Below, piece by piece: positions 44,186 to 54,164 of a DNA stretch of 64,000 nucleotides (position 1 is the stretch's first letter; each line of letters opens with the position of its first letter). The DNA comes from Escherichia phage ELT1: sequence record MZ892903.1; one strand, written 5' to 3'. Made by a program: the position numbers and the translations under genes. The notes under the pieces are model-generated. The model was not told where the DNA came from. It saw only the letters and a program-made list of their open reading frames with translations, and did not search any database.

Positions 44186-45384
44186 TTTGTAATAATGTCA
44201 AACTGTTCTTTAAAGCAGAAGCTTGAATCTTGATGCTGATACAAAAATTCATAAGCTTTTTCACGTTCGCGGTCATAAAGAGTTCGGTCAGATGACAGTT
44301 CTTTAATACGTTCAAATGTTGATTCCATGTCATTTTCATCAAACCAAATGATACCGCTATCATGCGAGGTCAAAGGAGTATTATCAACACGGAATTTTAA
44401 ATTATCACCCGTTGATTTCCAAAATACCGGAATTGTACCGCAAGCACCTAATTCAAGATGAGTATATTCGAGTGAGCGTTGTAAGTATTTCTGGTTAAGT
44501 TTACTCAACTGATATCCAAAGCCAGATTTACTCATTCGTTCAAGCATTTCACTATTAATATAACAATCTAGGATTTGTGCCGGTTGATTCGGCGTGAGAT
44601 TCATTTTATCAATCTCACGATTACCATAATATTCATACGGAATACCTTTTTCCTTAATTGCAATAAAAGCAGGGGAACGTTCAAGACCTTCCATTACAGT
44701 GGATTTACCAGCAGGTTTTAAGAATTTTTCGTGAAAATCAAACATCTGATAAAAACCTTTCCATGTAGTCGTACGACCAATCCAACGGTTGATGTTCATG
44801 TTAATTTCAGAAACATCTTTCCAATAAGTTGACCGAACCTTCGCAATATCCATAGGAGGCTGAAAATTATATACTGTTGGTGCTTCTTCAATATCATCAA
44901 ACAGAGAAACAGTTTCTGGATACCATTCTTTCATCAGAACTTTATTAAAATCACCATTATCAGAATGGCTAAAAATAACATCAGCTCGACGAACAGTTTC
45001 TTCTAATCCCAAATTTCGACGCAAAGAAAGCACAGAATGATCATGCTGATAAACTACAACACGAATAGAAGGTTTAATATTATCTAAAAGTTTTTTATAG
45101 TTATTAATCGTAGCTTCTTGAACGGAAGTAGCAGGAACAGAATTAATAATTAGAATATCACAATCATTTACCAGCTTAAGTGCTTTATCGTATTCTTTAG
45201 CTAAAATAACTGGAATTGAAAATGATTTGTGGTCATGAGAACTTGTACGAGTAAATGATTTATCTTTAGCATAAACCAAAGTTACTTCATGACCATTTTT
45301 AATAAACCAATCACGCTGCTCAAGAGAAAATTTAGTTACACCGCAACCTTCAAGGCCCCGAGCCAGAAAAATGCATACTTTCAT
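44182..45384 (-). CDS. a-gt: DNA alpha-glucosyltransferase, 400 aa
   Basis: matches recalled T4 alpha-glucosyltransferase in sequence and length. Confidence 0.9.
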   Translation of the reverse strand: MKVCIFLARGLEGCGVTKFSLEQRDWFIKNGHEVTLVYAKDKSFTRTSSHDHKSFSIPVILAKEYDKALKLVNDCDILIINSVPATSVQEATINNYKKLLDNIKPSIRVVVYQHDHSVLSLRRNLGLEETVRRADVIFSHSDNGDFNKVLMKEWYPETVSLFDDIEEAPTVYNFQPPMDIAKVRSTYWKDVSEINMNINRWIGRTTTWKGFYQMFDFHEKFLKPAGKSTVMEGLERSPAFIAIKEKGIPYEYYGNREIDKMNLTPNQPAQILDCYINSEMLERMSKSGFGYQLSKLNQKYLQRSLEYTHLELGACGTIPVFWKSTGDNLKFRVDNTPLTSHDSGIIWFDENDMESTFERIKELSSDRTLYDREREKAYEFLYQHQDSSFCFKEQFDIITK

Positions 45385-45434
45385 TTAATATCCTCTTTGT
45401 TTTGGTTTATTTTATCAAAAAAATTATAAAGCAA

Positions 45435-45455
45435 TATAGGAGCCGAAGCTCCTAT
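45435..45455 (-). terminator. terminator-like hairpin
   Basis: ATAGGAGC-CGAA-GCTCCTAT. Confidence 0.45.
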
Positions 45456-45628
45456 CCGCATAATACGCCATACAAAGGCTCGTTAGAGCTTCTAAATTTT
45501 TATGCGCTTATATGTTATAGTTCCTTCTGCTTTAGCTTTATCGTAAGACTCTTTAAAGCGTCTCATCATTTCTACTTTAGAGGAACGAATTTTATTATAA
45601 TCTATTTCAGAAGTCTGGTGTTCATCTT

Positions 45629-45835
45629 TCATAACTGCCACCATTTTTTGACTTGATAAGAATCAACCCACACTTTCATATTAGGGTCTGCTCTTACAAT
45701 AGGAGGATTAACTTCTTTAATTGAACTATCATGGTATTCTTTTTCAGAAATTTTCACGCAAAGATGACCGTTCAAAGATTCAGTAAATCCTGCATTAATT
45801 TTAAGACGCTTGAATTTTACGTGTGTAAGCATCAA
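45629..45835 (-). CDS. hypothetical protein, 68 aa
   Basis: ORF track. Confidence 0.4.
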   Translation of the reverse strand: MMLTHVKFKRLKINAGFTESLNGHLCVKISEKEYHDSSIKEVNPPIVRADPNMKVWVDSYQVKKWWQL

Positions 45836-46118
45836 TCATATCCTCAATCTGCGATCTAGTAGTCTTCCAAAGAATACTGATGAGTTCATCGTTATATGGC
45901 TGTTTTAGAATATCCCGACTTTTCTTGATAGCATATTCGTATTGAGCAAAATTATTATTTTCAGCTGCGATCTGAGCGTGCTTATAAAGACGATTCAGTT
46001 CGCGTTTGTTTTTAGACAATAACTTATTTGCTTTTCTTTCTGCTTCAAGACGGTTCTTTTCTTCAATAGAAGAAATAAGCTTTTCCACTTCATCATTAAT
46101 TTCGGGTTTATCAGTCAT
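45801..46118 (-). CDS. hypothetical protein, 105 aa
   Basis: ORF track. Confidence 0.45.
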   Translation of the reverse strand: MTDKPEINDEVEKLISSIEEKNRLEAERKANKLLSKNKRELNRLYKHAQIAAENNNFAQYEYAIKKSRDILKQPYNDELISILWKTTRSQIEDMIDAYTRKIQAS

Positions 46119-49726: not shown

Positions 49727-50197
49727 TTAATCATGTTTCCACACCCCATCGGTATTTGACCAAAGTCGCTGATTATCTGATCCTCGCCACAGCTTTTTGG
49801 TCGGAAGATTTTTCTCATACTTCCCATCAATAATAACATCAACATATTTAAGCATTTCTAGTTGTTTAATATCTTCAAACTTATATCCTGTCCACAACCA
49901 GATATCTTTCTCCGGAAATCTTGCTTTAACCCAAGAAACTAAATTTGAAATCTCTTCTCGGTTCTGTGGATAAAGTGGGTCACCACCGGTTAAGGTAAGG
50001 CCTTGGATATACGATTTGCTTAAATGGGACGCAAGTTCTTTAACGGTATTCATAGTGAATAACTGTCCGTTACGAGCATTCCAAGTACTACGATTATAAC
50101 AACCTTCGCATTTATGCAAACATCCAGTGACGAAGAGAACGACCCTGCATCCAGGACCATTAACAAAGCAGCACGGGTATATTCTATCATAATTCAT
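49727..50197 (-). CDS. nrdG: anaerobic ribonucleotide reductase activating protein (radical SAM), 156 aa
   Basis: ORF trimmed to MNYDRIYPCCFVNGPGCRVV...; cysteine cluster CLHKCEGC. Confidence 0.85.
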   Translation of the reverse strand: MNYDRIYPCCFVNGPGCRVVLFVTGCLHKCEGCYNRSTWNARNGQLFTMNTVKELASHLSKSYIQGLTLTGGDPLYPQNREEISNLVSWVKARFPEKDIWLWTGYKFEDIKQLEMLKYVDVIIDGKYEKNLPTKKLWRGSDNQRLWSNTDGVWKHD

Positions 50198-50819
50198 CTT
50201 TATATTTCCAAGTATATCCCTTATGAATAGATTGAATTCCTTTGCAACATTTATAAACAGCAGAATGAAAAAATCCTGCATTTCTTATTTCAGTTGCTCC
50301 AGTTAGTTCTATTGTATTTCCGTCTGGTGAATAGCCAATAACCGTTTTGGTGTTAAAGCGATTTCTAGAACTATTTTTGATATGCTCTTTATGACTAGTA
50401 GACAAAGTTCTTCCTGTTAGCCCATCAGATATCCTTTTTCCAAAATCATCAGGAAGAGTTACTTTAGACCTAGCTATGCTCATTAGCTTCTTAGTTTTAT
50501 CGCTTCTTTTTGTGCCACGCTGATTTTCAAATTTCTTAGCTTTTGCATACGCGTATTGTGAAGAAGTAACTTTTCTATGCTTACTATTACTCATTATCCA
50601 ATATGCATCATACATCTTTCCACCACATATTTTAGCCAATAAATGGTGAGCAGTATAGTGGGCCTTATAAGTTAAAAATACTAAGTTGTCTAAATCATCT
50701 GAACCACCCATGCTTCTTGGAATTATATGATGAAGTTCATACCCGGCTTTAGTTTGACGGGGCTTAGATGGGTGTTCAGCAGAATTAACTAGATTTGAAT
50801 AGATTCTGTCATAATTCAT
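50187..50819 (-). CDS. HNH homing endonuclease, 210 aa
   Basis: MNYDRIYSNL... and HHIIPRSMGGSDDLDNLVFLTYKAHYTAHH; free-standing between nrdG and nrdD. Confidence 0.75.
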   Translation of the reverse strand: MNYDRIYSNLVNSAEHPSKPRQTKAGYELHHIIPRSMGGSDDLDNLVFLTYKAHYTAHHLLAKICGGKMYDAYWIMSNSKHRKVTSSQYAYAKAKKFENQRGTKRSDKTKKLMSIARSKVTLPDDFGKRISDGLTGRTLSTSHKEHIKNSSRNRFNTKTVIGYSPDGNTIELTGATEIRNAGFFHSAVYKCCKGIQSIHKGYTWKYKDEL

Positions 50820-50831
50820 TGGTGTTTAACC

Positions 50832-52111
50832 CTATGCATGTTTTACTCGTTTTACCATTTCTTTCATTTTACCTAAATTCCATGGGACAACGCTAGGAGT
50901 TCCAAGATATCCGCATGTTCTTCTTATGGTGTTCATCTTTTTAGGATCAGTTTCTCCACAAATAGAACAAACAAATCCGTTTTCAGTAGGAGTCATTTCA
51001 TGGGTACTTCCACATGTAAAACATTTATCTACTGGCATGTTAACACCAAAATAATCTAAATGTTGCGCAGCATAATCCCATACGGCCTCAAGACCTTTTA
51101 AGTTATTTTTCATATCAGGAAGCTCAACATAAGAAATGTGACCACCTGTCGCAATGAAATGATATGGCGCTTCACGAGAAATCTTTTCAAACGGAGTAAT
51201 ATTTTCTTCTACTGAAACATGGAAACTGTTAGTGTACCAGCCTTTATCAGTAACATCTTTTACACTTCCATATTTTTCTGTATCGAGTTTACAGAAGCGA
51301 TAACAAAGGTTTTCAGCAGGAGTCGAATATAAACTAAAAGCAAATCCGGTTCTTTCAGTCCACTGTTTAAGATGGGCATTCATTTTAGTTAAAATTTCTT
51401 GTCCAATATCACGACCGACAAGAATATTCAATTCATGAATACCAATGTATCCTAAAGACACTGAACTTCTACCGTTTTTAAATAACTCAATTATGTCGTC
51501 ATCAGGTTTAAGACGAACCCCGAATGCACCTTCTTGGTAAAGAATAGGAGCAACAGTCGCTTTAACTCCTTTTAAGGAACTAATTCTACACATCAAAGCT
51601 TCAAAACACAAATCCATTCGTTCATTGAATAATTCAACAAATTTCTGTTCATTGAACTGTGTTCCAATATAAGAATCTAATGCGATACGAGGAAGATTCA
51701 GTGTTACAACACCAAGATTATTACGTCCATCAAGAATTTCATTACCAGTCGAATCTTTCCATACACTCAAGAAACTACGGCAACCCATTGGAGAAACAGG
51801 AACAGATGAACCAGTGATAGCTTTATTGTTCTTAGCTGAAATAATATCAGGATACATTCTTTTGCTTGCGCACTCTAGAGCAAGCTGCTTAATATCATAG
51901 TTCGGATCGTCTTTATAAAGATTAACACCTTCTTCAACGAACATAACAAGCTTAGGGAAAATAGGAGTTATCCCATCACGACCAAGACCTTTAATACGAT
52001 TTTTCAGAATTGCTTTCTGAATCATTCGTTCAGTCCAGTCAGTTCCCGTACCAAATGTAATTGTTACAAAAGGCGTTTGTCCATTAGAGCTGAAAAGTGT
52101 ATTTACTTCAT
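50832..52111 (-). CDS. nrdD: anaerobic ribonucleotide reductase NrdD, exon 2 (426 codons incl. split Tyr)
   Basis: glycyl-radical C-terminus and zinc ribbon CFTCGSTH...CSICGE; exon 1 + exon 2 = 605 aa as recalled for T4 NrdD. Confidence 0.85.
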
Positions 52112-53156
52112 CATTATATTCAGCATGAGTCGCAAATTCATGCCCGTTTATATGAAACAACAAAATTTGGATAGTCCATAGATATGCAACGTTCTTTTAT
52201 AGTGCTAGGATGAAAATTTAGCGCTTTAGCTGCTTCTATATAAGACGTATACTTAATACCGTCAACAACCACATATTCAGGAACTTTATGAATAGTAGTC
52301 TTAATACTCAAAACAAGAGGATGAGTTTCGACTTCACTTTCAGTGCAATTTAAATATTCCGCTGCTTTTTTAAAACTTCTAAAAGTTTTATTTTTAAGCT
52401 TTATCGATACTTGTTTTTTACTTTTTCGACTATTGACATTATTTTGCACATGTTCCTTAGATCTTCCGTTTTTAGCATAATATTCAGCTACAGAAGATTT
52501 TATATTGTTTTTATGAGATTCGGATAACACTTTACCCTTATGAGCATCTCTTAATTTTTGAATATGTTCTTCAGTATCCGGATGCTTATAAAACTTTTTA
52601 CCGCCTATGGATTTATTTAAACATTTTTTGCTATAAAAATATTTACGTATGACCTCTTCTTCATGTTTTAATGCATCTTTATAACTATCAAATGTTTTTA
52701 AAATTATCCATTTAGTAGGTGTATCAGTTTTTAAGCGTTCATTTATATACTTAGATGACGTTGTGTAAGTTTTCCAGTTTGTGGGCTTGTTTTTAATTGT
52801 TCTAAATTTTTTATAACCGATATAAATGTCGCCATTAGAAAACTTAACTAAGTATGTAAATGCGTCTTTATCTTTTATTTTAGTACAACGTCTTTTTATC
52901 CATTTCATTGTTTCACCTCGTATTCATAAGATAATCTTATTTATACAAGATGACTGCTGCATGTCGCCATGCAGATTAGACTATATCTTCATCTTTCGAT
53001 GCCGGCCGTTTCGAATAGCATTAGCTTCTATTCTACACCGCTACATTCATCACGGTTAGTCGTTAGGCATTTAGTTCAAAAGAACATTTAGCACGGGATT
53101 GTCTACTAGAGAGGTTCCCCGTTTAGACCGGTTTTACATGAGCCTGAATTAAATTA
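52112..53156 (-). mobile_element. group I self-splicing intron in nrdD carrying the I-TevII ORF
   Basis: ~1.0-kb non-coding interruption of nrdD with internal GIY-YIG ORF; junction placed by homology (AFQAYE|YEVNTLF vs E. coli AFQALEYEVNTL); last intron base is G. Confidence 0.65.
52138..52908 (-). CDS. intron-encoded GIY-YIG homing endonuclease I-TevII, 256 aa
   Basis: YLVKFSNGDIYIGYKK motif; GAGGTGA RBS; inside nrdD intron. Confidence 0.85.
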   Translation of the reverse strand: MKWIKRRCTKIKDKDAFTYLVKFSNGDIYIGYKKFRTIKNKPTNWKTYTTSSKYINERLKTDTPTKWIILKTFDSYKDALKHEEEVIRKYFYSKKCLNKSIGGKKFYKHPDTEEHIQKLRDAHKGKVLSESHKNNIKSSVAEYYAKNGRSKEHVQNNVNSRKSKKQVSIKLKNKTFRSFKKAAEYLNCTESEVETHPLVLSIKTTIHKVPEYVVVDGIKYTSYIEAAKALNFHPSTIKERCISMDYPNFVVSYKRA

Positions 53157-53694
53157 ACTCATACGCCTGGAATGCATCGTATACGTCTTTTTCTGTTTTA
53201 GATTGGGCATAATTCAACGCATCAGCGATTTGCCATTTTTCTGCATCCTCAATATGTTTTGCATAGGTGCGTTTAACATAAGGAGAAAGTACTTTATCTA
53301 CATTCGCAAAAGTCGTTCCGCCATATTGATGGGAAGCAACCTGCGCAGTAATTTGTGCCATAATTGCAGTAGCAACACCGATTGATTTAGGAGTTTCAAT
53401 CTGTGCATTACCAAGCTTAAATCCGTTCTCAAGCATTCCTTTTAAATCTACTAAACAGCAATTAGTAAATGGAAGAGCAGGGGAATAATCAATATCGTGC
53501 ACGTGAATAATTCCGCTTTCATGCGCTTTCATAATAAAAGACGGGACCATATTTTTGGCAATGTGTTTAGACACAATACCGGCCATAAGGTCCCGTTGAG
53601 TTGGAAAAACACGAGAATCTTTATTAGCATTCTCGTTTAAAAGGTCTTTATTAGTTTTATGAATCAATCCTTCAATTTCTTTTTCAATTGTCAT
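53157..53694 (-). CDS. nrdD: anaerobic ribonucleotide reductase NrdD, exon 1 (179 codons + first base of split Tyr)
   Basis: MTIEKEIEGLIHK...DVYDAFQAYE; ORF runs into intron and stops after ELI. Confidence 0.85.
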
Positions 53695-54164
53695 TTTAAA
53701 CTCTTTCTAAGCTGCTTCTTAAATGAAGCTATTAATTGTGTTTTGGTGTCAGATTCATTATATTCAAATCCTCTTTGAAGCATCTCAGCCATCATTTCCT
53801 CTTTTCCTAAACGAGAAAATTCCTTTGATTTATCTCCAACGAAGTTAGGGTGAATATTATTTTGGGTGTAATCGGATTTTAAATAAGTAAGTAAATTTTC
53901 TAACCATTCAAGATAATCAACACCTTGTCCCTTTAAGCCAGAACGATTAAATTTGTGCTTCATTTGACCTTCTGCAGCATTGCAGAGATTACAAAGCAAT
54001 CCACGTATCTTTCCTGCTTTTGGTCCATTTAATTCATGGTCATGGTCGAGGTGATTAGCTTGAACATCAGGATTTAGTTCTCGTTGGCAAATTAAGCATT
54101 TACCGTTTTGTGCATTATAAAATTTTTGTTTTTCTTCTTTGTATAATTTGCCAGTCAATAACAT
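53691..54164 (-). CDS. 49: endonuclease VII (Holliday-junction resolvase), 157 aa
   Basis: zinc-binding CLIC...C; matches recalled T4 gp49. Confidence 0.85.
   Translation of the reverse strand: MLLTGKLYKEEKQKFYNAQNGKCLICQRELNPDVQANHLDHDHELNGPKAGKIRGLLCNLCNAAEGQMKHKFNRSGLKGQGVDYLEWLENLLTYLKSDYTQNNIHPNFVGDKSKEFSRLGKEEMMAEMLQRGFEYNESDTKTQLIASFKKQLRKSLK

Follow-up and report, generated by a model that had tools for sequence, protein, structure and literature searches.

The nrdD gene of Escherichia phage ELT1 is interrupted by an element of 1,045 nucleotides (nt) that is very probably a mobile, self-splicing phage group I intron of the IA2 type, carrying a gene for an I-TevII-like endonuclease and spread by homing. 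It was studied in a window of 64,000 nt from this phage (sequence record MZ892903.1), to which all coordinates refer. The element lies at the insertion site of the T4 nrdD (sunY) intron and evidently belongs to a second lineage of that intron, one that has diverged deeply: the exons are approximately 98% identical to those of T4 (NC_000866), similarity collapses exactly at both splice sites, and the present intron is 66% identical to that of T4 over 97% of its length.

Intron boundaries and the spliced NrdD

The interrupted gene comprises the following parts, the first exon being taken from the list of open reading frames (ORFs):

52112..53156, minus strand: group I (IA2-type) intron, 1,045 nt; 5' splice site after U53157, 3' splice site after G52112
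53157..53694, minus strand: nrdD exon 1, 538 nt; codons 1-179 and the first base of codon 180
50832..52111, minus strand: nrdD exon 2, 1,280 nt including the stop codon

The exon-1 reading frame (53694..53149, minus strand) terminates ...DVYDAFQAYELI followed by a stop, and the rest of NrdD is found in a second frame, which resumes ...EVNTLFSSNGQTPFV and runs down to 50832. When 53157 is joined to 52111 (T/AT; here and below a slash in a sequence marks the splice site), 538 + 1,280 nt give 605 codons with a single terminal stop, codon 180 is restored as Tyr and the junction reads AYE-Y-EVNTL. The spliced protein aligns with the crystal structure of T4 NrdD (1h78) over residues 1-604 in one gap-free stretch (1,377 bits), and no gap falls across the junction in an alignment with the cellular NrdD 9d3x (...QSLEYEINTLF...). 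In five intronless alleles (T6, Sf22, RB69, RB68 and ATK47) the exons are contiguous, reading ...TATGA(A)T/ATGAAGTAAAT, and a shift of one base either way fails to restore the gene; the intron is therefore exactly 53156..52112. The splice context on the minus strand is GAGU/...AAUG/AU, and the ligated exon junction predicted for the spliced RNA is ...GCGUAUGAGU/AUGAAGUAAAU.

A preliminary description of this DNA had placed a group I intron at 52112-53156, joined the exons at a T/AT split codon into an NrdD of 605 amino acids (aa), and named a junction that fails to restore the NrdD frame as grounds for refutation. The match to a group I model (below) supports the intron, the intronless alleles bear out its placement to the base, and the frame is restored at 53157/52111 in a protein that is gap-free against both structures. 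The same description considered the boundaries uncertain by a few bases, as it put the T4 intron at ~1033 nt. That length is correct (1,033 nt, 45847..44815 in NC_000866), but the doubt was misplaced: the boundaries are exact as given, and the 12 nt by which this different intron allele, of a separate lineage, exceeds the T4 intron are made up of internal insertions and deletions.

Group I ribozyme structure

A scan of 51900-53400 (1.5 kb) with permissive filters matched the whole of the Rfam group I intron model (RF00028, Intron_gpI; positions 1-253 of 253) at 53192..52957, scoring 70.6 bits where the gathering score is 50 (E value 1.6e-17). The Rfam speed filters may lose introns that contain large ORF inserts. 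A match to snoRNA Z159 at 52033-52121 (17.9 bits against 39, E value 4.4) was attributed to chance. As a check on its reading, the preliminary description had proposed folding the intron for P1-P9 and an internal guide sequence; P1, the guide and the P3-P9 core could all be placed, as follows:

53137..53163, minus strand: P1; exon UAUGAGU (53163..53157) with guide GCUCAUG (53143..53137), placing the pair U53157.G53143 at the splice site
52957..53131, minus strand: catalytic core, consisting of P3, P4, P5, P6, P6a, P7, P7.1, P7.2, P8 and P9
53131-26 with 53007-02, minus strand: P3, pseudoknotted with P7
53061-57 with 52983-79, minus strand: P7
53056-53 with 53040-37, minus strand: P7.1, with compensatory changes relative to T4
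53033-28 with 53018-13, minus strand: P7.2, with compensatory changes relative to T4
53001-52990, minus strand: P8, CAUC-GAAA-GAUG
52974-52957, minus strand: P9, with a GCGA loop
52122..52144, minus strand: 3'-terminal hairpin (P9.2-like) from folding, GGCAUGA with UCAUGCU; the endonuclease stop codon UGA (52140..52138) lies within the stem

At the 3' splice site, the terminal intron G52112 precedes exon 2, as group I rules require. P7.1 and P7.2 are both present between P7 and P3', the feature by which Michel and Westhof reportedly defined the IA2 subgroup in 1990. The position of the 3'-terminal hairpin is kept in other T4 introns with different stems (GUAGAG with CUCUAC in T4 nrdD, GGUAAG with CUUAUC in td), and a P10 of 3 base pairs (bp) could form between intron nt 10-12 (UCA, 53147..53145) and exon-2 positions +2..+4 (UGA, 52110..52108). 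The exon base at -2, which forms a G-C pair in P1, is G in all carriers examined and A in all intronless alleles examined. Plus-strand ORFs within the intron (for example, 52826-53059) and a plus-strand "terminator" at 52123-52143 were set aside as mirror images of minus-strand features.

The fold was compared with that of the T4 nrdD intron in an alignment of these two sequences only, for which shuffle statistics are weak: across P1, P3, P4, P5, P6, P6a, P7, P7.1, P7.2 and P9, 49/49 pairs are standard in both introns. Twelve pairs differ by double compensatory changes (P3, P4, P6a, P7.1 and P7.2), a single pair has changed on one strand (C-G to U.G), and no pair is disrupted; in a control in which the 3' partners were slid by 1-3 columns, 32-38% of positions were paired.

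These observations bear on an alternative in which the insertion does not splice at all, so that nrdD is truly split, its two halves being expressed as separate polypeptides on either side of a free-standing endonuclease gene. There is a precedent in Aeh1 nrdA, which is split by mobE without an intron (PMC3653736), and public annotation takes this form, with two nrdD coding sequences (CDS) and a "homing endonuclease" in most GenBank records of the allele. The carrier records that we examined mostly show two NrdD fragments together with a "homing endonuclease" or "hypothetical protein", and in some GenBank records the ORF already goes under the name "homing endonuclease" or "intron-associated endonuclease 2". 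The annotated "second CDS", however, begins at an arbitrary in-frame TTG or ATG within the intron. A split gene is highly improbable given the full-length group I match, which exceeds the gathering score, the exact restoration of the frame at the U.G and terminal-G boundaries, the 12 compensatory changes that keep the ribozyme fold, and the intron-linked exon G(-2) that completes P1.

The intron-encoded endonuclease and its control

The following features belong to the endonuclease gene and the region directly upstream of it:

52138..52908, minus strand: homing endonuclease gene, 771 nt, 256 aa; I-TevII-like GIY-YIG N-terminal domain and NUMOD1
52913..52953, minus strand: regulatory hairpin upstream of the endonuclease gene, -17.3 kcal/mol, z score -5.6
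52945..52938, minus strand: T4 late-promoter box TATAAATA, inside the regulatory hairpin
52919..52916, minus strand: Shine-Dalgarno GAGG, sequestered in the 3' strand of the regulatory hairpin
52915..52930, minus strand: operator-like copy of the intronless homing site, 16 nt, CTTATGAATACGAGGT versus CTTATGAATATGAAGT, 2 mismatches; overlaps the ribosome-binding site

The GIY-YIG ORF named in the preliminary description is present as this 256-aa frame (52908..52138), which contains YLVKFSNGDIYIGYKK and matches Pfam SegE_GIY-YIG at 27.3 bits (cut-off 25), Pfam NUMOD1 at residues 171-193 (25.2 bits, cut-off 22.8) and PHROG 314, "homing endonuclease" (103 bits). The name I-TevII that was given to it does not fit: the protein is just 56% identical to T4 I-TevII over its full length (256 versus 258 aa). 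In a collection of 5.8 billion proteins, the family consists of two clusters at 90% identity, one containing the present protein (64 members) and the other I-TevII (38 members). A tblastn search of the phage collection returned 44 records at 95% identity or more, approximately 25 at 55-57% and nothing else above 35%; no intermediate endonuclease lineages were found in the 5.8 billion proteins or by this search. The motif blocks FTY..x10..YIG, KHEE..IRKYF and LNKSIGG are common to the ORF and the active I-TevII. Relative to the I-TevII gene, nonsynonymous divergence (dN) is 0.39 and synonymous divergence (dS) is 1.54, a ratio of ~0.25 (Nei-Gojobori), which indicates that both endonuclease genes are old and have been under long-term constraint at the protein level.

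The counterpart of the regulatory hairpin in T4 has a folding energy of -15.5 kcal/mol (z score -5.4), and both the late-promoter box and a hairpin that hides the ribosome-binding site are conserved with T4. [quoted passage not shown]

Relationship to the T4 nrdD intron

The two nrdD introns have an identical insertion site (codon 180, T/AT; ...TATGAGT/ATGAAGT...), an identical P1 guide and P9, and a shared helix set that includes P7.1 and P7.2. Both have a late promoter with a hairpin sequestering the ribosome-binding site, and their endonucleases are homologous over the full length. In both, the ORF is positioned downstream of P9, so that ~0.8 kb separates the core from the 3' splice site, an arrangement that Michel et al. 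are said to have described for T4 sunY in 1992. The two differ in several respects: the cores are ~75% identical, with the 12 compensated pairs described above; P8 here has a shorter stem, of 4 bp, closed by a GAAA loop (CAUC-GAAA-GAUG), compared with CAACUC-UAA-GAGUUG in T4; P7.2 is 7 nt longer; and the regulatory hairpin contains an 11-nt palindromic insert. Synonymous exon-2 changes near the site fall at +14..+29 here, versus +8..+20, +35 and +38 in T4.

With the gene, insertion site, architecture and neighbourhood (gene 49, nrdD, mobC, nrdG) all as in T4, the element could be taken for the T4 nrdD intron encoding I-TevII itself, the 12-nt difference in length then being a boundary error. 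This has almost no probability. T4-type copies of the intron are 99.2-100% identical in all 25 records, a class outside which the present intron falls at 66% next to exons of ~98% identity; the protein belongs to its own cluster; and the boundaries are set independently by the intronless alleles.

Distribution and homing

The spliced junction region has matches in 693 records of the phage collection, and in 621 of these a single place covers at least 80% of a 400-nt junction probe (these counts, and the ~44 and 25 given next, include duplicate RefSeq/GenBank entries); among the matches listed, all but one are contiguous and intronless. The T4-type intron is present in 25 records at 99.2% identity or more, including T4 stocks, RB55, RB59, PST, U5, G8, fPS-2, EC128 and Manna, and the present allele in ~44 records from the genera Tequatrovirus and Mosigvirus. 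Of the accession series that we take to be that of the Sandegren and Sjoberg 2004 survey, U5 (AY262145) is the one nrdD-intron record encountered, and its intron is T4-type. Scanning IMG/VR for the exon end typical of an occupied site (GAGT) gave a single locus.

The intron differs from that of the Tequatrovirus and Mosigvirus carriers by 1-4 mismatches per 1,045 nt (99.6-99.9% identity). In five Mosigvirus carriers, 2-4 of 1,045 intron positions differ from the window, along with 33-40 of 538 in exon 1 and 62-91 of 1,280 in exon 2 (exon identity 92.6-95.2%). The flank that is identical to the window ends upstream between -8 and -53, varying by phage, and downstream at +14 (KAW3E185), +23 (215Ecol030PP) or +56 to +95 (other Mosigvirus carriers), leaving a minimum shared co-conversion tract of -7..+13. 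Differences near the insertion site are all synonymous, and exon 2 of the window has six consecutive synonymous third-position differences from intronless alleles at +14..+29 (52098..52083). A near-identical intron in genera whose exons are 5-7% apart, flanked by variable co-conversion tracts, indicates that the present allele has spread recently by homing. Bell-Pedersen et al. reportedly mapped the I-TevII cut in 1990 to 13-15 nt 3' of the insertion site, a position with which the shortest downstream tract end (+13/+14) agrees, albeit indirectly.

The intron might also splice but have been moved by general recombination, or in trans by a neighbouring free-standing endonuclease, instead of by its own enzyme. 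Homing in trans is documented, in that mobE mobilises the defunct T4 nrdB intron (PMC2790892); in ELT1, mobC abuts nrdD ~1.3 kb downstream of the intron, ORF-deleted and frameshifted intron copies persist in some phages, and the activity of the encoded enzyme is predicted from its sequence. Mosigvirus carriers lack mobC (nrdG directly follows nrdD) yet have the same intron at 2-4 mismatches, co-conversion extends only a short way to either side of the insertion site, as for a cut within a few bases, and the ORF is intact in ~40 records with a dN/dS of ~0.25 versus I-TevII. Such transfer without the intron's own endonuclease is thus unlikely, if less so than a gene that does not splice.

Several carriers have damaged endonuclease genes. 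In 215Ecol030PP (PP328843; locus L003, 1701-2179), a 566-nt deletion of the ORF between short AAGAC repeats leaves an intron of 479 nt in which the ribozyme and 3' end are intact, and the record is annotated with two NrdD CDS and nothing between them. In F1 (MT682712/NC_054912), FN (MZ170041) and 236Ecol005PP (PP434423), the ORF is recovered by tblastn in two pieces, indicating a frameshift, with the ribozyme intact; these appear to be pseudogenised copies. We regard the ORF-deleted and frameshifted copies as decay stages of the homing cycle.

Proposed mechanism

In the pre-mRNA, P1 would form between the last seven bases of exon 1 (UAUGAGU) and the intron guide GCUCAUG. Guanosine would be bound by the core (P3-P9, including the P3/P7 pseudoknot), which would cut after U53157, and the 3'-terminal hairpin and a short P10 would carry the distant 3' splice site to the core. 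Ligation of the exons at the terminal G52112 would then generate codon 180 (Tyr) and an intact 605-aa NrdD. The 771-nt frame, downstream of P9 and outside the catalytic core, would encode an I-TevII-like GIY-YIG endonuclease, the translation of which should be blocked by the ribosome-binding-site hairpin in early read-through transcripts and free in transcripts from the embedded late promoter. In a mixed infection, the enzyme may cleave intronless nrdD a few bases into exon 2, and repair of the double-strand break would give the recipient a copy of the intron along with flanking exon sequence of variable length.

A number of points weigh against this interpretation. Splicing, endonuclease activity and cleavage position are each inferred from sequence. 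The default Rfam scan of the whole 64-kb window at the gathering threshold gave no match, which we judge to be a filter miss, and P10 is merely 3 bp in length, as is P5 in this allele. A search of the ORF sequence against the PDB returned noise only, with no solved structure matched; the N-terminal domain is not reliably aligned in a three-way MAFFT comparison with I-TevI, such that the catalytic Arg, Glu and Asn are not confidently placed; and the carriers are so nearly identical that they give no power for testing current selection on the ORF. Finally, the operator-like site is statistically weak: it is the sole match with two or fewer mismatches in the window (0.15 expected), and 12 of 100 shuffles yield an equal or better match somewhere in the window. 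Its position at 52930..52915 is suggestively compatible with the autorepressor-operator idea of PMC2988022.

Mosaic structure of the core and comparison with other introns

The core shows ~75% identity to each of the T4 nrdD and td cores, and the similarity is unevenly distributed. The td-identical segment and the informative sites along the intron are as follows:

53057..53127, minus strand: td-identical segment; 42/42 nt at 53127..53086 (intron nt 30-71) and 17/17 at 53073..53057 (nt 84-100), with the P6a hairpin as the sole interruption
Intron nt 1-25 (P1 and guide): 11 nrdD-like, 3 td-like and 1 unique informative sites
Intron nt 26-100 (P3-P7): 2 nrdD-like, 13 td-like and 3 unique informative sites
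Intron nt 101-215 (remainder of the core): 8 nrdD-like, 6 td-like and 17 unique informative sites

The longest exact run in common with the T4 nrdD intron is 19 nt. A Fisher test on the informative sites gives p ~0.001 for boundaries that were picked after inspection of the data. The P3-P7 segment identical to the td intron suggests a chimeric origin, through past recombination between td-type and nrdD-type introns. Bryk and Belfort are said to have obtained such recombination ("domain shuffling") between T4 introns in the laboratory in 1990. Whether the td-like tract is an ancestral state that the nrdB intron also retains could not be told from a comparison, since the core of that intron differs too much. 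A more extended scenario is possible but doubtful: the intron would be a natural td/nrdD chimera whose endonuclease has diverged in specificity from I-TevII, the two lineages would compete for one site, and the synonymous clusters in exon 2 would be lineage-specific immunity marks. If this is true, these clusters (+14..+29 here; +8..+20 in T4) protect occupied alleles from cleavage and are not passive co-converted sequence.

The T4 td intron, which encodes I-TevI, also has an IA2-type core, with 59 nt of P3'-P4-P5-P6 and J6/7-P7 identical to the present intron, and the same regulatory logic for its endonuclease (PMC2988022). It differs in gene and guide, in the position of its ORF (in the P6 loop, not after P9) and in lacking a long P7.1 loop, and I-TevI aligns at only ~25% identity. 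The nrdB intron of RB3 and T4 (I-TevIII) is likewise of group I, mobile and inserted in a ribonucleotide reductase gene of T-even phages; unlike the present intron, it encodes an HNH endonuclease and its P3-P6 core is unrelated in sequence. Intact and ORF-deleted versions of the nrdB intron coexist in a natural population (PMC1865063), which parallels the 479-nt ORF-deleted copy of the present allele in 215Ecol030PP.

Group I introns of Vibrio phage nrdD genes, for example those of 1.084.O (locus L015, 1880-2613) and F96 (locus L016, 1875-2627), are similar in P7-P9, with 74-85% identity over intron nt 85-204. A shared insertion site was tested and ruled out: they interrupt nrdD at ...PMG/CRSFL..., near the active-site cysteine, and contain unrelated winged-helix or HNH ORFs. 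The F96 nrdD is apparently interrupted more than once.

Gene neighbourhood

On the minus strand, gene 49 (endonuclease VII, 54164..53691) is followed by nrdD, a mobC-type HNH gene (50819..50187) and nrdG. The mobC-type gene, between nrdD and nrdG, encodes an HNH endonuclease of 210 aa with ~99% nt identity to T4 mobC, and its first codons (MNYDR...) are a duplicate of the nrdG start. The last 22 codons of nrdD (50816-50910, minus strand) encode 11 residues unlike those of T4, ending ...TPSVVPWNLGKMKEMVKRVKHA before the stop where T4 has ...NPNERGFNLGKNKEIMHRVKHQ. Directly after and overlapping the nrdD stop, and overlapping the mobC start, is an out-of-frame remnant, ATG CAT AGG GTT AAA CAC CAA TGA (MHRVKHQ and stop), which is the sequence that serves as the C-terminus of T4 NrdD. 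Both types of nrdD 3' end are present in other phages with differing downstream neighbours (mobC, nrdG directly or another insert), suggesting recombination at the shared CATGCATAGG motif beside an insertion point of free-standing endonucleases. The best matches to 40000-64000 of the window in the phage collection are only ~97% identical (JEP6 and HY03); with no better match over 24 kb, the source phage would be a Tequatrovirus absent from that collection.

Significance

No published description of the present allele was found in a full-text literature search, which did not cover the Sandegren and Sjoberg 2004 survey (J Biol Chem). The allele leaves the understanding of group I introns and GIY-YIG enzymes unchanged. 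Its exact splice coordinates permit a correct joined nrdD CDS in ~44 public Tequatrovirus and Mosigvirus records, and its core is a probable example of intron-intron recombination. The two endonucleases form a natural homologous pair for the comparison of target recognition, and the carriers offer co-conversion end-points in a naturally occurring series. In nature, two old lineages occupy the classic nrdD intron site (66% nt identity; endonuclease-gene dS ~1.5), and each of them is nearly clonal and recently spread; in the phage collection, it is the non-T4 lineage that is found in more records (~44 versus 25) and that crosses genus boundaries.

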